A stretch of DNA of 44,526 nt from Escherichia phage vB_EcoP-101117UKE2, in the sequence record MZ234019.1, one strand, 5' to 3'. Position 1 is the first letter of the stretch. Each line of letters opens with the position of its first letter. The position numbers and the translations under genes are program-made. Under the pieces are notes generated by a model, which was not told the DNA's origin, ran no database searches, and saw only the letters and a list, made by a program, of their open reading frames with translations. Positions 15,933 through 44,462 of this stretch are shown here, in pieces.

Positions 15933-16876
15933 ACATCTTCCAATTCCTAGGCCTTCCAGAAGATCACCGCAATCATCCATTCATGCTGGTGAAACATCGC
16001 GGTGAAGTTCCTGAGAAGAAATTAACTTTTCCATGTTATGCACAGGTGAAACGAGATGGTATATTCAGTGCTGTTGTGGTGCGTAATGATGGTGCTGTTG
16101 CCATCTTTGGTCGTACTGGTAAGAAGCTCGCAAATGTTGAAGCCTTGGAAAAGACATTTAGTGTATTTCCTGTCGGGTTGTATCTTGGTGAGTTGCAATC
16201 TATGGCTGTTGATGTTTATCTTGAAGCTCTATCAGGAGTGGTAAACCCTAATCGTACAGAGCCACTTGATTTCATAGGCCAGCAGATTAAAGACAACCTG
16301 TATATCGACTTCTTCGATATGTTAACCATTAAGGCATTCCATGACGGATTCACTGATGTTTCTTATCTCAAACGTTACGATGCTTTATATCGTCGCATCG
16401 GCACTCATCTTAGCGGGTACAACGCTATCCTTCCTATTACTCCTTGCCATAATGAGCGAGAAGTTGAAGCATTTGCGCAAGAGCAAATAGATGCAGGCCG
16501 AGAGGGTGCTGTGTTTAAACTGGACTGCGATTACGAAGCAGGCCATAAAGGTTATCGTCAGACTAAAGAAGTCCGTAAGGTAACTTATGACCTTACTTGT
16601 ATTGGCTTTGAAGAAGGCAAAGGTAAGTACAAGGGTAAGGTAGCTAACCTCATTTTCAAATGGAAAGGAGGCAAGACAATCAAAGCTATGCTAGGTAAGG
16701 GGTGGACTCATGCAGATGCAGAACAGATGTTCCATGATATTAAACATGGCGGACGATTGAATGTCATTGGTAAAATCTTTGAAGTCAAAGGTCTTCAGGA
16801 TTCAAGCAAGGGCAACATTCGTCAGCCCAAAGCGGGAGAATTAAGACATGACAAAGATGAACCAGATTTCTTTTGA
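15929..16876 (+). CDS. ATP-dependent DNA ligase (315 aa)
   Basis: Adenylation motif AQVKRDG (KxDG), EGAVFK; GGAGG RBS. Confidence 0.9.
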   Translation: MNIFQFLGLPEDHRNHPFMLVKHRGEVPEKKLTFPCYAQVKRDGIFSAVVVRNDGAVAIFGRTGKKLANVEALEKTFSVFPVGLYLGELQSMAVDVYLEALSGVVNPNRTEPLDFIGQQIKDNLYIDFFDMLTIKAFHDGFTDVSYLKRYDALYRRIGTHLSGYNAILPITPCHNEREVEAFAQEQIDAGREGAVFKLDCDYEAGHKGYRQTKEVRKVTYDLTCIGFEEGKGKYKGKVANLIFKWKGGKTIKAMLGKGWTHADAEQMFHDIKHGGRLNVIGKIFEVKGLQDSSKGNIRQPKAGELRHDKDEPDFF

Positions 16877-17063
16877 TAGTATGAAGGCGACTCGTGCTGT
16901 TGAGGTAGCAGAAGCTATCTTTGAAACTTTATCTTGCGGCATGGAAGTGCCATATACTTTACTGGCTGATGCAGAAGAACTTGGTCTTTCTGTAGAAGCT
17001 ATCCAAGAGAAAGTTGAGGAACTCTATGGTACAGACGAAGAAGAAACCGACGATTTCATTTGA
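16848..17063 (+). CDS. hypothetical acidic protein (71 aa)
   Basis: ATG with GGAGA RBS. Confidence 0.5.
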   Translation: MTKMNQISFDSMKATRAVEVAEAIFETLSCGMEVPYTLLADAEELGLSVEAIQEKVEELYGTDEEETDDFI

Positions 17064-28548: not shown

Positions 28549-31500
28549 ATGGTTGATAGTATTAACCAAAACTGGGTGGCGGTGACTCAACGCAAGTTAC
28601 CGCCTACCTTCTCTCAAATTGCTGAAGCTGAGCGTAAGGCTGAAGCCCAGAGAGCTAATGATAAAGTGTTTCAAACAGCAATAGAAAGTGAGTGGGCTTT
28701 ATATGGCGGACAACGTGCCTATGAACGCCACACTACAGAGTTTGCTGAACAAGAAGGCTATGAAGTGCCTGAGTCAACTAAGGATGAGTTATCCAAGTTG
28801 TATGGGTATGAAATAGCGCAAGACATAGTTAAGAATGTAAAGTCTCCAGAAGAGTTGCAATTCCGTATGTCTAATGCTGCTGCTGATAAAGACAGAGCAG
28901 ACATCTTAGCACGTAATGGTTTCACGGGTTTCAGCGCGCAGATTGCTGCTGGCATCCTTGACCCTGTAGGTTGGGCTGCATCCTTAGTGGCTGCGCCTGT
29001 AGCGGGTGCTGTCAAAGTAGGTAGGCTAGGTAGGATTATCAAGACGGCTGCCTTATCAGGTGCTGAAAATGCTGCATTAGAAGCTATACTTGCACAAGGT
29101 GATTACCAGCGAGGGGTTGATGATGTACTGGCTGCTGCCGGATTTGGTATGATTATGGGCGGCACTATTGGTGCTGCAACCAGAGAGCGCATAGCCAGTG
29201 CTGGTTCTCGTACAGCGGCAGAACGAGCAGATGCTGTAGTTGATGACTTGGACACTGTAGTAAAAGGTGCTGATGAATTTGACTCGTCTGCGGCTCGTGC
29301 TGTACGTGAAGCTATGGAATATGACGCGTATATGGCAGCGCGTAATTACGAACCACTTCGTGCAAGAGAGGTAGATGCAGACATGGCGATTCTGTCTCAC
29401 ACAGATAATTTGAAAGCCAATGCATCGGTAAGGATGAGTGCTAGTGAGAAAGGGCAACTGAAGAAGCAGATACGTCAGCTTGAAGCAGAAGCAGCAACAC
29501 TTAAAGGGAAGAAGATAGACACTGTAGCGGAAGCTGCGGCTGCTAAGGGTGCACCTAAATCTGCTGCTGACAGATTAGATTTGGATGTTCAGAAGAAAGC
29601 ATTAGCACGTAGATTTGATGAACCACTGGCAGACTTACAAGCGCGTCTTGATGAGTTGAATGCTAAATTGTCTCGTGTAAACAATGTAGGCAAAGCCAAG
29701 GAAGAGCTTAAGAGATTCTCATCGCTATCTCGTGAAGAGCAAATAAAGGAGTTAGGTCTAGACGCACCAGTGCGCAAGGTAGAGATGACCCGTGCCGTGC
29801 GAGATGCAATTGACGCAATCCGTGCCGAGCGTAAGAAGACGCCTACCGAAATACATGCTGAACAAGTCGCAGAAGATGCAATTAAGCAAAGGGCAGACGA
29901 CTCTGTTGGTGCTAAACGTGTTGAAGGTTCAGAGATTGCAGGTGAACAGTTTGACCTATCTAAAAACATGGAAGAACTTATGGATGACTTGGCACGAGAA
30001 GCATACCAGTCAGAGGTGCGGCCTATTAATCTTAAGGGTTTAGGTTCAGTGTCTTCTGTGATTCTTAACTCAGAGAATCCTGTGTTCCGAGGCCTAGGTC
30101 TTCGTCTGCTTGAAAATGCTCAAGGTGGTGCATATCAAGGTAAGACAGCTTCTATCTTATCAGATGTGTATGGCAACCTTATTCGTCATGCAGAACGTAA
30201 CAGATACAATGATGGCTTCTCTCAGTTCATCAAAGATAATAACCTACGTGCGGTAGATTATCTTAACCCTGCAACGACAAGGGATTTCAATAATCAGATT
30301 TATACAGCAATTGTTCGTGGCATACCAGAAGATACACCTCGTGGTGTTAAACTGGCAGCCGAAGGTATTGCAGATAAGCTCAAGAAAGCACTGGAGATTC
30401 GTAAGCAAGCAGGTGAGCGAGGCTTCGAGGATGTGCAATCTGCTAAAGATTATATTCCCGTTATCTACGATGGTATCAAGATCACAGAGGCAGTTAACAA
30501 GTTAGGTAGTAGTGAAGCTGTCATTCACTTGCTATCTAAAGGGTATCAGACAGGCAAGTACAAACTTGGCAAGAAAGCTGCTGATGCACTAGCCAAAGTT
30601 CAGTATATTCGCGCATCTGACTCCACCCTCTCTAGTCGTGTTGCATTCGATAGAGTAGTATCCCAGCAGCAGCAGGCTCAATTGATTGAGGATCTGAAGA
30701 AAGCAGGAGTACCAGACCATATCATTGATAATTTCATTGAAGGTACGGAATTAGCAGAAATGGCTGAATCGGTATCCAATCGAGCTAAAGCTAGCATGGG
30801 TATTAATACGCAAGCCGAATATGGCGGTTTGAAGGTGCAGGATTTGCTTAATACAAACGTAGGCGAGCTAGCTGAGAACTACGGCAAAGAGGCAGCAGGC
30901 GGTGCTGCATTAGCTGCCATGGGTTTCCCCACTCGCCAGTCTGTGCTGAATGCGATAGATGCCGCAGAACGCGCAGGTCGTAATATGGCGGGGTCAAATG
31001 CTAAGGCAATCAAACAGCTTAGAGCTGAGGCAGAAATGCTCAGAGATGCCGTTAAGCTCATTTACGGCAACACTATTGACGCCGACCCTAACTCTGGAAT
31101 TGTCAGAGGCACTCGACGTGTCCGTGAGATTACAGGCTTGTTACGATTGGGTCAAATGGGCTTCGCTCAGATACCAGAACTGGCACGTGCAATCTCTAAG
31201 ATGGGATTAGGTACTGTGCTGAAGTCCATACCTGCCACGAAGTTCTTACGTTCAAGGGCGGCTCGTAAGGGAGGAACAGCTCAAGGTGAATTACTTGAAC
31301 CTGAACTGCGAGAAATGGAGGAACTCTTAGGCTATATCGGGGAAGATAACTGGCTTACAGGGTGGAACGTCCGTCATGATGAGTTCGGAGAAACTGCTGA
31401 TAACCTAGGTAAGCTGTCTGCTATTATTGATAACGGATTAGCTATGGGTAGTAGAATCAACACAATACTCTCTGGATTTAAAGCAGTACAAGGTGGTTCA

Positions 31501-32352
31501 GAGAAAATTGTAGCTCGCTCTATCAATAAGAGATTAAAGCAGCACTTGATGGGTGAGAGACAATTACCTAAAGCAGACCTTGAAGAAGTAGGCCTAAGTG
31601 AAGATGTCATGAAAAGACTTAAGCGTCACTTTGATGACAACCCTCTGTACGCTGAGTACAATGGAGAAAAAGTTCGTATGCTGAACTTTGATGCTATGGA
31701 GCCAGACCTGAGAGAGACAGTGGGTGTTGCTGTGCGAAGAATGTCAGGCCGTCTTATTCAACGTAACTTCATTGGCGATGAAGGTATCTGGATGAATAAA
31801 TGGTGGGGCAAGGCATTAACGCAGTTTAAGTCATTCTCTATTGTCTCTATTGAGAAACAGCTAATCCATGATTTACGAGGTGATAAGATTCAGGCTGCAC
31901 AGATACTTGCATGGTCTACTTTACTAGGTTATGCATCTTATGCACTACAGATGCAGATGCAAGCGATTGGTAGGGAGGATAGAGACAAGTTCTTGAGGGA
32001 TAAGTTTGACACACAGAACATCGCTATGGGTGTCTTTAATAAACTTCCACAAGTTGCAGGCTTTGGTTTAGCTGGTGATGCTTTGGCAACCTTTGGCCTA
32101 ATGCCAGACTCCATGATGCAAGCACCGGGACGCATGGGTTTCCGTCAGCAAGGCTTTGGGGATTTGGTAGCAGGTGCTGGTGTAATAAGTGATACAGTTA
32201 ATTTGTCACAAGCACTGGTTAAGTATGCCAGTGGAGACGATGATGTCTCTACGAGGCAGTTGGTAGACAAGGTTCGTCGCCTTGTTCCTTTGGCAAATAC
32301 TATTGGTGTGGGTCAGATGACTAAAGCCAGTGTAGATTTATTGGAGGATTGA
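28549..32352 (+). CDS. large internal virion (core) protein (gp16-like, 1267 aa)
   Basis: Size and synteny; AGGAGG RBS. Confidence 0.8.
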   Translation: MVDSINQNWVAVTQRKLPPTFSQIAEAERKAEAQRANDKVFQTAIESEWALYGGQRAYERHTTEFAEQEGYEVPESTKDELSKLYGYEIAQDIVKNVKSPEELQFRMSNAAADKDRADILARNGFTGFSAQIAAGILDPVGWAASLVAAPVAGAVKVGRLGRIIKTAALSGAENAALEAILAQGDYQRGVDDVLAAAGFGMIMGGTIGAATRERIASAGSRTAAERADAVVDDLDTVVKGADEFDSSAARAVREAMEYDAYMAARNYEPLRAREVDADMAILSHTDNLKANASVRMSASEKGQLKKQIRQLEAEAATLKGKKIDTVAEAAAAKGAPKSAADRLDLDVQKKALARRFDEPLADLQARLDELNAKLSRVNNVGKAKEELKRFSSLSREEQIKELGLDAPVRKVEMTRAVRDAIDAIRAERKKTPTEIHAEQVAEDAIKQRADDSVGAKRVEGSEIAGEQFDLSKNMEELMDDLAREAYQSEVRPINLKGLGSVSSVILNSENPVFRGLGLRLLENAQGGAYQGKTASILSDVYGNLIRHAERNRYNDGFSQFIKDNNLRAVDYLNPATTRDFNNQIYTAIVRGIPEDTPRGVKLAAEGIADKLKKALEIRKQAGERGFEDVQSAKDYIPVIYDGIKITEAVNKLGSSEAVIHLLSKGYQTGKYKLGKKAADALAKVQYIRASDSTLSSRVAFDRVVSQQQQAQLIEDLKKAGVPDHIIDNFIEGTELAEMAESVSNRAKASMGINTQAEYGGLKVQDLLNTNVGELAENYGKEAAGGAALAAMGFPTRQSVLNAIDAAERAGRNMAGSNAKAIKQLRAEAEMLRDAVKLIYGNTIDADPNSGIVRGTRRVREITGLLRLGQMGFAQIPELARAISKMGLGTVLKSIPATKFLRSRAARKGGTAQGELLEPELREMEELLGYIGEDNWLTGWNVRHDEFGETADNLGKLSAIIDNGLAMGSRINTILSGFKAVQGGSEKIVARSINKRLKQHLMGERQLPKADLEEVGLSEDVMKRLKRHFDDNPLYAEYNGEKVRMLNFDAMEPDLRETVGVAVRRMSGRLIQRNFIGDEGIWMNKWWGKALTQFKSFSIVSIEKQLIHDLRGDKIQAAQILAWSTLLGYASYALQMQMQAIGREDRDKFLRDKFDTQNIAMGVFNKLPQVAGFGLAGDALATFGLMPDSMMQAPGRMGFRQQGFGDLVAGAGVISDTVNLSQALVKYASGDDDVSTRQLVDKVRRLVPLANTIGVGQMTKASVDLLED

Positions 32353-42015: not shown

Positions 42016-42127
42016 GCAGGTTAATATCTTAGTGTACACAAGGGCAGACTTAGGTTTGCTCTTAGTGTATTCACAAGGATGATCACAAAGTAACCAAGTC
42101 AAAATTTTGATGTAGGCGTGTGTCAGC

Positions 42128-42300
42128 TCTCTCGCCCTCGCCCTCGCCGGGTTGTCCCCATAGGGTGGCCTGAGGGAATCCGTCTTCGACGGGCAGGGCT
42201 GATGTACTCCTTGTACTAGCTTAGTAGTACACAAGGGCTGGCCTTTTGTTTTGCCGTGTACTAGCAAGGTGGAACGCTGGAGAGCGCCTAGGACGGCCTA
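42128..42300. other. probable physical genome terminus and terminal-repeat region
   Basis: TCTCTCGCCCTCGCCCTCGCCGGGTTGTCCCCATAGGGTGG resembles the recalled T7 left-end sequence; lies between last late gene and early promoters. Confidence 0.5.
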
Positions 42301-42386
42301 GGGATGGGCTTAGTGGTGGACAAGGTGATTGCCTTAGTGAAGCCGCTTAGTGCATTCCTGAGGCCATTCAGGGCGTTTATGAGGTA

Positions 42387-42416
42387 TTGACAGGGTGGGC
42401 GGGCGTGGGCTATCTG
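42387..42416 (+). promoter_or_regulatory. candidate host sigma70 early promoter
   Basis: -35 TTGACA at 42387; weak -10 TATCTG after 18-bp GC-rich spacer. Confidence 0.3.
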
Positions 42417-42790
42417 TTCGTTTCGCTAACGCTCCACTCACAAGCCTGACGTGTACCTTAGTTATTACCTTAGGTTATTCCTTGATGGATAGCTTAGGTT
42501 AACCTGAGTGGATTACCTTAGTTAAAGCCTTAGTGCTTAGCTTAGTATCAGCTTAGTAGTGTACCTTAGTCAGACTTAGTGTCTTCTCTTAGTGATTGCA
42601 CATGCAAGCATGTAAGATGCCATTAGGTCGCGGTCGGTAGACCGCTAAGAAGAAATAATAGTAATAAGATGCAGTAGGAGGAACACCAGAAACCTGGCCA
42701 ACCTAGCCTATCCTAGCTCTGTATCTATTGCTTTTCCTTAGTCTAACACGTTAGACAACCTATCTTATTCTTAGTGATGGTAACTTAGTG

Positions 42791-42820
42791 TTGACAAGAT
42801 AATCTTAGTGTAATACTATG
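42791..42820 (+). promoter_or_regulatory. candidate host sigma70 early promoter
   Basis: -35 TTGACA at 42791, 17-bp spacer, -10 TACTAT. Confidence 0.5.
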
Positions 42821-42962
42821 CATCACGTAGGCGGTGCTGAGGCACCTAGTAGCCAGCTAGTAAGGCATACGAAGAGACTAGTGCCTACATTGTTCTTTAA
42901 CAATTTGCTTAGTGTAACCTATGTATGCCGTGGTTAATTACTTATTGAATGAGGGATTAACT

Positions 42963-43142
42963 ATGACATTAAACAACCGTGAACTGTCCGTTCTCTTCAC
43001 TATGTTGTGCTACATGATTCGTAACAACGAATTACTTACAGACGATGAGTTAGCCTTGTATCACCGCTTTCTTAACGAAGGTTGGACTGATACAGTTAAT
43101 CAATACCGTAACATGATAGATGAGTTGAGGGAGGGTAAATAA
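42963..43142 (+). CDS. early hypothetical protein (59 aa)
   Basis: ATG 42963 with GAGGG RBS (track start 42921 lacks RBS); stop overlaps next start (TAATG). Confidence 0.55.
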   Translation: MTLNNRELSVLFTMLCYMIRNNELLTDDELALYHRFLNEGWTDTVNQYRNMIDELREGK

Positions 43143-43366
43143 TGTATCAACATGAGGTATTCTTTGAATCAGCTAGCGAAGCTATTCGCTTCCGTGATGA
43201 TATGATGCAAGCTGGTGTAGGCGTTGATGTGTATCACTATTTGATAGATTACGACACTGAATATCACCGAGTTACCTTAGTATCTGAGTATGACAACCAA
43301 GTCATTACTGAGTATCTAGGTAGTGAAGATTATGATTACGATGAAGTAATCACGACAAATCTCTAA
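43142..43366 (+). CDS. early, strongly acidic protein (74 aa); candidate DNA-mimic or anti-defence protein
   Basis: GAGGG RBS; Asp/Glu/Tyr-rich composition; leading-end position next to ocr. Confidence 0.6.
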   Translation: MYQHEVFFESASEAIRFRDDMMQAGVGVDVYHYLIDYDTEYHRVTLVSEYDNQVITEYLGSEDYDYDEVITTNL

Positions 43367-43374
43367 ATTAACTA

Positions 43375-43404
43375 TTGACAGCCACGGCATACAAGGTTAC
43401 ATTA
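43375..43404 (+). promoter_or_regulatory. candidate host sigma70 promoter
   Basis: -35 TTGACA at 43375, 17-bp spacer, -10 TACATT. Confidence 0.4.
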
Positions 43405-43480
43405 AGCACATAGCCGATAGGCAACGCTCTTTAACAATCTGGTTTGTGTCTTGATAGGCTAACTAACTAAGGTAATTATT

Positions 43481-43591
43481 ATGAAAGGTTTAATTTGTGT
43501 AGAACGTATGGTCAATGGTAAACTTGAAATATTACCACTGGAAAACCAATCTAGCTTCAAAGAGTGGTATGGCTGTTTCTCACTGATTTAA
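43481..43591 (+). CDS. small hypothetical protein (36 aa)
   Basis: ATG preceded by AACTAACTAAGG; weak support. Confidence 0.25.
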   Translation: MKGLICVERMVNGKLEILPLENQSSFKEWYGCFSLI

Positions 43592-43742
43592 GGTAAAGGC
43601 TGGCACTAGTCAGCCTATCAAGGCGCAAACCAAGCTCTTTAACAATTTGGATGGTAGCTTCTTAGTCTGGATAGGTTAAACCTAGGAGATTCTCTTGAGT
43701 CTCCTATAATGTAACCTAACTAACTAAATGAGGATTAATAAC

Positions 43743-44096
43743 ATGGCTATGTCTAATATGACTTACTCTCAGGTTTACAACACCGCTCATGCTGCATTAG
43801 TTGAACGTATCTGGAATGATGCTATTGATTGTATCGATAACGCACATGATGCAATCCATGAGGTAGCGGACAGTGCTGTACCAATCTATTATGCTGACAT
43901 CTTCTCAGTGATGGCGAGTGAAGGTATTGATCACTTCTTCGAAGACTCCGGCCTGATGCCAGATACTAAGGATGTAACGGTCGTACTACAAGCCCGTATC
44001 TATGAACAACTCACCATTGATTTATGGGAACGTGTTCAAGATATGATTGTTGCGTACACCACTTACGCTGATTATTCAGAAGAAGAGGAAGAATAA
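43743..44096 (+). CDS. ocr: Ocr-like anti-restriction DNA-mimic protein (117 aa)
   Basis: MAMSNMTY start and [52 protein letters not shown] match recalled T7 gp0.3; acidic C-terminus; GAGG RBS. Confidence 0.9.
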
Positions 44097-44098
44097 GG

Positions 44099-44212
44099 AT
44101 GGAAAAGCAATATAACTTTATCTTTTCAGACGGTGTGACCCTGAAGTGTTCCCTGCGTTTCGCGCAGATTCGCGAGGAAGTGCTAGGAACTACATACAAA
44201 CTATTTAGCTGA
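44099..44212 (+). CDS. small hypothetical protein (37 aa)
   Basis: ATG just after ocr stop; overlaps downstream promoter; weak. Confidence 0.25.
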   Translation: MEKQYNFIFSDGVTLKCSLRFAQIREEVLGTTYKLFS

Positions 44213-44225
44213 CACTATAAGAGAG
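44203..44225 (+). promoter_or_regulatory. phage RNAP promoter variant ATTTAGCTGACACTATAAGAGAG
   Basis: SP6-consensus-like upstream half; altered initiation region TATAAGAG. Confidence 0.55.
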
Positions 44226-44285
44226 GGTTTAACAGGGCGCTCTTGCGAGAGTGCCCGATTAAATCAACTTAACGAGATATTAAAT

Positions 44286-44462
44286 ATGAAATACATACTG
44301 ATTGCTATGTTTTCTGGCTTCATTGGCTATGCTGGTGCTTCTTATGACAACTACAGAAGTAAGCAATTGGCTGCTGAAAAGTGGGATAAAACCTATTTTG
44401 CTTGTATGAAACAAGGTAATTTGATGCAAGATTGCATACTTAAAGCGCGCAGCGAAGAGTGA
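44286..44462 (+). CDS. small protein with signal-peptide-like N-terminus (58 aa)
   Basis: MKYILIAMFSGFIGYAGA hydrophobic N-terminus, two Cys; weak RBS. Confidence 0.4.
   Translation: MKYILIAMFSGFIGYAGASYDNYRSKQLAAEKWDKTYFACMKQGNLMQDCILKARSEE

Follow-up and report, generated by a model that had tools for sequence, protein, structure and literature searches.

Genes 1 and 2 of a K1-5-type Escherichia phage: a hypervariable gene 2 slot and candidate RNA processing signals upstream of ocr

The closest described counterparts of the locus examined here are found in phages T7, SP6 and K1-5: T7 encodes the Ocr protein as gene 0.3 of its early region, and SP6 and K1-5 carry two small genes, 1 and 2, that are annotated as hypothetical in every record examined. 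We have analyzed the corresponding part of Escherichia phage vB_EcoP-101117UKE2 (MZ234019.1), whose complete 44,526-nucleotide record is referred to below as the window; the genes, promoters, boxA copies and stem arms of its early region are all on the plus strand. Gene 1 (42963-43142), gene 2 (43142-43366) and ocr (43743-44096) are the three open reading frames (ORFs) that an earlier note, made from the letters alone, had grouped as a leading-end early cluster, and all three are present as described. Genes 1 and 2 are the same genes as those of K1-5 and SP6, in the same order and with the same coupling, with no difference of substance, and all three genes were already in GenBank, where ocr is named. 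The portrayal of an ocr gene flanked by small acidic proteins holds in part: gp2 is very acidic and Tyr-rich, but gp1 is only mildly acidic (net charge -4) and both genes lie upstream of ocr. Small ORFs at 43481-43591, 44099-44212 and 44286-44462 had been overlooked.

The reading that we favor, tentatively and with somewhat less than even confidence, is that gp2 is an early host-interaction effector with a variable surface that tracks variable host factors, with gp1 as its constant partner or, alternatively, as an effector directed at a conserved target. The earlier finding by itself adds little to what was known, as ocr is annotated, the two small ORFs correspond to genes 1 and 2 of K1-5, and for both a close relative has been screened without effect. 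The parts that appear worth pursuing are the allelic behavior of gp2 and the arrangement of boxA elements and RNA stems in which the pair is embedded.

Gene 1, gene 2 and their relatives

By sequence comparison the phage is a Vectrevirus of the K1-5/K1E/SP6 group within the Molineuxvirinae. The window is a circularly permuted record in which base 1 of K1-5 corresponds to position 42132, with K1-5 positions 1-87 matching 42132-42219 at 98.9% identity (blastn), and the records of three relatives (H3, H12 and H14) begin at the same point. Because K1-5 base 1 aligns there, the physical left end is placed at 42132, with the left terminal region at 42132-42219, and gene 1 thus lies ~830 bp inward, as its description as a leading-end gene requires. 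Matches to the phage promoter motif TTAGNTGACACTATA, which we take to resemble the SP6 promoter consensus, number 12 on the plus strand, all of them downstream of genes 1-4; the first, at 44205-44219, runs past gene 4 and forms part of a phage-RNA-polymerase-type promoter, ATTTAGCTGACACTATAAGAGAG, at 44203-44225, which overlaps the end of that gene. The region open to host RNA polymerase alone ends at this promoter. Since genes 1 and 2, a 36-amino-acid ORF, ocr and gene 4 are upstream of every phage-type promoter, they can be transcribed by the host enzyme only and are class I early genes, in agreement with the earlier proposal.

Gene 1 (orfA) encodes 59 amino acids, and its product is 98% identical to that of K1-5 gene 1 and 71% identical to that of SP6 gene 1 (tblastn); it matches phrog_9275 with E = 2.5e-40, residues 1-58 aligning with positions 1-58 of the 59 in the profile. 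Gene 2 (orfB) encodes 74 amino acids that are 100% identical to the product of K1-5 gene 2 and match phrog_6403 over residues 1-74 (E = 2e-29). Gene 1 starts at 42963, preceded by the ribosome-binding site GAGGGA, in agreement with most homologues and with the 59-position profile; the GenBank start at 42921, which falls inside a conserved RNA stem described below, is less likely. The TAA stop of gene 1 (43140-43142) and the ATG of gene 2 (43142) share one base, as TAATG, just downstream of a Shine-Dalgarno sequence, GAGGGAGGG, so that the translational coupling proposed for the pair is borne out. It is also general, as the gene 2 start overlaps or abuts the gene 1 stop in 19 of the 19 K1-5/SP6-type loci compared in detail (18 related loci and the window itself), at distances of -14, -8, -1 or +3 nt; the 14-nt overlap occurs in L012 and L013, where gene 2 is present. 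More distant relatives, phD2B and VLCpiA2a, were used for specific features.

Both genes are, judged from their substitution patterns, under purifying selection, the median dN/dS being 0.16 in gene 1 and, among K1-5-type alleles, 0.06 in gene 2. Homologues of gp2 and gp1 were recorded in 64 and 101 phage records, respectively, at the same position wherever this was examined, and come almost entirely from phage contigs, many of them genome-sized at ~44 kb. No homologue of either protein was found in plasmids or in complete E. coli genomes, and an exhaustive profile search of 1.84 billion representatives returned only four genuine gp2 clusters; on the basis of these searches the pair is confined to lytic Molineuxvirinae. 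Neither gp1, gp2 nor the other small ORFs match Pfam or NCBIfam, and the function annotation of both phrog_9275 and phrog_6403 is unknown.

The composition of gp2 is as extreme as had been claimed, with 17 acidic (D+E) and three basic (K+R) residues, a net charge of -14, nine tyrosines (12.2%) and a pI of 4.05, and its charge density of -0.19 per residue is the third most negative among 53 annotated proteins. A second very acidic small protein is encoded in the DNA metabolism region at ~16848-17063 (16793-17008 in the related record MZ234020.1, see below); it has 71 amino acids and a net charge of -14 and is, per residue, slightly more negatively charged than gp2.

Comparison of the loci shows that gene 2 behaves differently from its neighbors. 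Identity of gp1 to the window protein ranges from 58 to 98%, whereas identity of gp2 is bimodal, being either at least 86% or 18-32%, even where the neighboring genes are near-identical. An example is presented by L016, in which gp1 is 76%, Ocr 94% and gp4 100% identical to the window proteins, with gp2 at 19%. All of the gp2 alleles tested nonetheless match phrog_6403, including SP6 gp2, orf24, P0160, P0163 and P0168, and the alleles have in common an N-terminal M-[FY]-x-H-E-[VI]-[FY] and a C-terminal [YFW]-[DE]-[DE]-V motif. A Foldseek search with the gp2 model finds gene-2-slot proteins of SP6-like phages of Citrobacter, Pectobacterium and Proteus with TM scores of 0.78-0.86. Direct comparison by hhalign of a narrow gp2 profile with the single sequences of orf24 and SP6 gp2 gave weak matches (probability 8-23%), and it is the shared PHROG match and the Foldseek result that establish the relatedness of the alleles; together with the terminal motifs these show gp2 to be a single fold family whose allelic slot is hypervariable. 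Net charge varies from -1 to -14 across the alleles and from -1 to -9 in alleles other than that of K1-5, so that in the sequences compared the extreme acidity and the nine tyrosines are limited to the K1-5 allele and are not a family trait. In the Lelliottia phage phD2B (Tuodvirus, L022), a gp2 homologue at 1325-1543 is situated just upstream of a putative SAM hydrolase gene at 1720-2136, a T3-type anti-restriction gene in the position held here by ocr.

Structure prediction suggests that gp1 is a conserved three-helix bundle, with no match below E = 0.7 among the sequences of solved structures. The gp2 model (pLDDT 86) has a beta-alpha-beta-beta-alpha-beta order and appears to be a generic compact ferredoxin-like domain, with no match of the predicted fold to known anti-defense proteins. 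Judged from the fold topology and the secondary structure, two of the three acidic/tyrosine clusters would share one pole. The beta2-beta3 hairpin (D36-Y37-D38-T39-E40-Y41) and the alpha2-beta4 loop (E62-D63-Y64-D65-Y66-D67-E68) are predicted to lie at the same end of the domain, and the few acidic positions that are conserved family-wide are at this hairpin/loop end as well. The model is thus suggestive of a localized acidic and aromatic binding pole, unlike the extended DNA-like surface of Ocr.

We note that gp2 also gave apparent matches to designer pentatricopeptide repeat (PPR) proteins, with E values down to 3e-21. These are sums of weak 22-residue matches (profile positions 12-33) to repeat arrays, in which no single stretch is significant, and the same artefact accounts for long repetitive matches in the exhaustive search. 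The segment concerned, gp2 residues 12-33 (43175-43240; first helix and next strand), has the family consensus SEAxRLLEDMEQAGVxADLTTF and resembles the PPR consensus; we judge this to be a local motif resemblance rather than homology.

Possible roles of gp1 and gp2

Relatives of both proteins were included in the screen of Silas et al. (bioRxiv 10.1101/2023.04.06.535777), in which ~200 accessory genes were expressed in 20 wild E. coli strains and challenged with eight phages in 45 combinations. The library contained orf96 (AFH19829.1, from phage ACG-C91), which is 97% identical to gp2 of the window, orf172, an SP6-type gp1, and orf24 (AUE22229.1, from phage VEc3), a different allele of the gene 2 slot. 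Of these only orf24 is in the list of genes with phenotypes, which the paper gives in full: it 'triggers PCD in ECOR61' by way of a prophage locus whose effector is Icd-like, and it comes from the same accessory region as ocr. Like gp2, orf24 sits directly after gene 1, matches phrog_6403 (E = 1.6e-27) and begins with MFKHE; it differs in having ~18% identity to gp2, a net charge of about -2 rather than -14, and no EDYDYDE loop. Two alleles of one slot thus contrast in outcome, with orf24 a trigger of cell death and orf96, of the window type, without reported phenotype. What orf24 shows is that the gp2 family is seen by host immunity; it is not evidence that the family inhibits immunity. As far as covered, the text and supplements of a follow-up paper (PMC12373910) do not mention orf24, orf96 or orf172, and the supplements of the 268-entry EVADES anti-defense catalogue include neither gp1 nor gp2.

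In the explanation that we prefer, gp2 would bind a host or immune protein, in the K1-5 allele probably through the conserved acidic/aromatic pole formed by D36-Y41 and E62-E68, and the replacement of one gp2 allele by another would be driven by an arms race with host factors that vary, escape from immune sensors being part of it; gp1 would be the constant partner of gp2 or act on a conserved target. Several considerations weigh against this explanation. The roles of gp1 and of the K1-5-type gp2 are putative; orf96 and orf172 are absent from the phenotype list across the 45 combinations, and no strain-specific lethality is reported for either (bioRxiv 10.1101/2023.04.06.535777). The partnership of gp1 and gp2 is a putative one, the argument from the acidic pole draws on the fold topology and the secondary-structure string rather than on model coordinates, and the structures were predicted from shallow alignments, of 35 and 27 close relatives. 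What remains is a conserved scaffold in a fast-swapping slot beside anti-restriction genes, one allele of which trips a prophage death system, and these features make gp2 a reasonable target for defense-specific assays.

Phage T7 keeps factors for host takeover among its small early and middle genes, and gp1 and gp2, like gp0.4, gp2 or gp5.7 of T7, could act on a conserved housekeeping target rather than in counter-defense. We regard this as improbable. In its favor, both genes are early and gp1 is strongly conserved (the 58-98% identity given above) in the sampled phages of Escherichia, Salmonella, Klebsiella and Citrobacter; the hypervariability of gp2 fits a conserved target poorly, and no strain-specific lethality of orf96 or orf172 is on record in the screen papers.

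The earlier note had taken the composition of gp2 as typical of DNA-mimic inhibitors, and by extension gp2 would be an Ocr-like DNA mimic that blocks type I restriction-modification or BREX-type DNA-binding defenses, with gp1 as a second small anti-defense protein. Small alpha/beta DNA mimics do exist, the charge density of gp2 is close to that of Ocr (-0.17 per residue), and gp2 is expressed from the leading end, before ocr, and belongs to the accessory region that holds ocr. The argument from composition is nevertheless unsupported, because that composition is the property of one allele and not of the gp2 family; the predicted compact ferredoxin-like fold does not help it, as two of the three acidic/tyrosine clusters of gp2 would lie at one pole of a 74-residue globule, and the charge of Ocr covers an elongated surface. 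Expression in defended hosts, which had been suggested as a check, is largely covered by the published screen: in the arm with MG1655 and lambda, which reads out EcoKI, ardA, ral and ocr were the only hits, orf96 was not among them, and neither it nor orf172 has a listed phenotype (bioRxiv 10.1101/2023.04.06.535777). Given the outcome of the screen, the non-conserved acidity and the presence of Ocr in the same phage, we disfavor a block of type I enzymes by gp2 and consider the DNA-mimic explanation unlikely; the K1-5 allele probably does not inhibit type I restriction as Ocr does. In the screen the genes were expressed heterologously and only model phages served as challenge, BREX and many other systems were not specifically covered, and an anti-defense role of gp1 or gp2, including one against systems outside the screen, is plausible if unproven.

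The boxA elements and long-range stems

In the rRNA (rrn) operons of E. coli, boxA antitermination signals precede long-range RNase III stems that surround 16S and 23S rRNA, and a similar layout surrounds genes 1 and 2. A sigma-70-type promoter, TTGACA-17-TACTAT, lies at 42791-42819; it scores 10/12 in the consensus scan, is the nearest consensus match upstream of gene 1 and is kept in K1-5-type relatives, and its function as the early promoter is inferred. Downstream of it, on the transcribed strand, the window has two exact copies and one single-mismatch copy of the rrn-type boxA core GCUCUUUAACAA. The window contains the motif in the form GCTCTTTAACAA at three sites, each on the plus strand, as compared with a chance expectation of 0.35: copy 1 at 42892-42903, GTTCTTTAACAA, has one mismatch (K1-5 is exact at this site), and copies 2 (43426-43437) and 3 (43634-43645, directly upstream of the ocr unit) are exact. 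The rrn boxA reference core (PMC2724277) is identical to GCTCTTTAACAA at 12 of 12 positions. Every related locus has two or three boxA copies, and T7 has one, upstream of gene 0.3.

Directly after boxA copy 1 is the 5' arm of a stem (stem 1; 42906-42935) that pairs with a 3' arm just past the gene 2 stop (43380-43408), enclosing genes 1 and 2. The predicted duplex has 29 pairs and an energy of -48 kcal/mol, compared with -17.7 +/- 3.5 for controls, and a duplex of this type, with energies of -42 to -53.5 kcal/mol, is predicted in 21 of 21 related loci, whatever genes it encloses. An alignment of 14 distinct sequences over 30 pairs has 97.8% of its cells paired, as against 24-41% in slid controls, and eight pairs have changed on both sides, as against 1.7 +/- 1.0 in shuffles, none of 500 of which reached the observed value. 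G-U pairs account for 27 cells and other non-standard combinations for nine, and this excess of G-U favors a structure formed by the plus-strand RNA. The 3' arm overlaps the spacer and -10 element of a second sigma-70-type promoter found in the consensus scan, TTGACA-17-TACATT at 43375-43403.

BoxA copy 2 is followed by a second stem, with a 26-nt 5' arm at 43440-43465 that is 88% complementary to the 3' arm at 43607-43632 (-43.5 kcal/mol); its arms covary in relatives, and it encloses the 36-amino-acid ORF. The arms are separated by 445 nt in stem 1 and 141 nt in stem 2. Of the 56 boxA sites in 22 loci, 34 have a pairing partner with an energy of -40 kcal/mol or lower, and the last boxA of each locus that includes an anti-restriction gene, before ocr or the SAM hydrolase gene, has none; this applies to copy 3 here and to the T7 boxA. 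Folded locally, the intergenic regions show no significant structure (z from +0.1 to -1.65), the signal being in the long-range pairs, and the region has no Rfam match. The literature covered, which did not include the SP6 and K1-5 genome papers (Dobbins et al. 2004; Scholl et al. 2004), does not describe this layout of boxA and stem for these phages.

The likeness to rrn operons extends to the geometry: boxA immediately precedes the 5' arm of a ~30 bp stem, and the 3' arm comes after the enclosed cargo. The difference is that the cargo here is protein-coding, and RNase III cleavage and NusB/NusE binding are candidate activities only; by analogy we regard the stems as candidate long-range RNase III processing stems and the boxA copies as putative NusB/NusE sites. 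T7 has the same boxA core before ocr and early transcripts made by host RNA polymerase, but its single boxA has no partner and its RNase III hairpins are local, whereas here there are three boxA copies, the first two with gene-enclosing stems. A cassette of boxA and covarying stem could explain how the earliest transcripts of these phages come to be modular and processed.

A bolder view, which we think doubtful, joins this device to the gene 2 slot: genes 1 and 2 would be a dedicated first-strike cassette with an rRNA-like expression device, the gp2 slot would hold hypervariable early effectors that interact with immunity, and the K1-5 allele would use a ferredoxin fold to mimic the backbone of a nucleic acid. 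K1-5 gp2 would then be aimed at a defense or host nucleic-acid-binding protein that the published screens did not sample, and the boxA-tethered leader would combine with the distal arm into an RNase III stem, allowing phages to swap and insulate early counter-defense genes.

The position of genes 1 and 2, first expressed, tightly coupled and inside a boxA and long-range stem cassette, also raises the idea that their products act on the early program of the phage itself, through host RNA polymerase or Nus read-through, RNase III processing or transcription-coupled genome entry. We find this less probable still than a DNA mimic, as neither protein resembles nucleic-acid- or polymerase-binding proteins, both are acidic, and a hypervariable gp2 would not be expected in a core regulatory role. 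That the two genes are chance or decaying frames without function can be set aside, for despite the lack of a match to any family of known function both are under purifying selection, have homologues in the 64 and 101 phage records noted above at a constant position where examined, yield confident structure models and are preceded by strong Shine-Dalgarno sequences.

Ocr and the remainder of the early region

The ORF at 43743-44096 encodes a genuine T7-type Ocr of 117 amino acids, as the earlier note had recognized and GenBank, which calls it 'protein Ocr', had recorded. It matches Pfam PF08684 with 144 bits (cut-off 25) over profile positions 1-100 of 101, and phrog_2568, 'ocr-like anti-restriction', with E = 9e-47; the similarity search against T7 gp0.3 (1S7Z) that had been proposed as its test gave E = 7.7e-40, with residues 1-117 aligned to 1-117 without gaps and 75 of 117 identical (64%), F54 being conserved. 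A start at 43743, with GAGGA upstream, reproduces the T7 N-terminus MAMSNMTY; the GenBank start is 43728. The two proteins are alike in length, in N-terminus and in their early location downstream of boxA, and differ in that the T7 protein is more acidic, with 34 acidic residues to 24 here. Of the 34 T7 positions 22 are kept, and the 12 that are lost are mostly in the N-terminal helix and the C-terminal tail; the window protein has a pI of 4.05 and a net charge of -20. There are two classes of Ocr allele in this phage group, the T7/SP6-like class of the window (MAMSNMTY...) and a K1-5-like class (MERNANAYY..., at 1575-1907 in L003), which are ~47% identical and assort independently of the flanking genes.

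The 19 loci have one gene order, in which genes 1 and 2 are followed by a variable ORF that may be absent, by ocr and gene 4, and then by gene 5, which is variable, gene 6 and the RNA polymerase gene. Gene 4 (44099-44212; 37 amino acids, phrog_11746) is translationally coupled to ocr, and its product is the most conserved of the small early proteins, with 71-100% identity across loci and a dN/dS of 0.04. Downstream of the phage promoter is a strong local hairpin at 44221-44270 (-25.1 kcal/mol, z = -3.8). The 36-amino-acid ORF at 43481-43591, inside stem 2, and the gene 5 slot at 44286-44462, which holds a 58-amino-acid ORF here according to the ORF list and the locus comparison, are filled by unrelated small ORFs in the different relatives and are further accessory positions around ocr; an example of such a variant is a 70-amino-acid protein, MNYCDIAHELRMEREKQEKR..., in L010-L012. 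Four short GenBank coding sequences (CDS), at 42118-42219, 42246-42350, 42395-42502 and 42818-42937, lie in the terminal and promoter regions and in the boxA/stem leader, and are probably not genes.

The segment 42000-44526 is a 100% match (megablast) to Escherichia phage vB_EcoP-101118B1 (MZ234020.1), which also has 44,526 bp, and the two records differ elsewhere. In the window, a stretch of 55 nt is perfectly duplicated in tandem at 6391-6445/6446-6500, with a frameshift in a hypothetical gene as the result. In MZ234020.1 a tandem duplication of 55 nt is found at 30941-31050 instead, where it divides gp16 into two CDS; the gp16 ORF is intact in the window, at 28549-32352.

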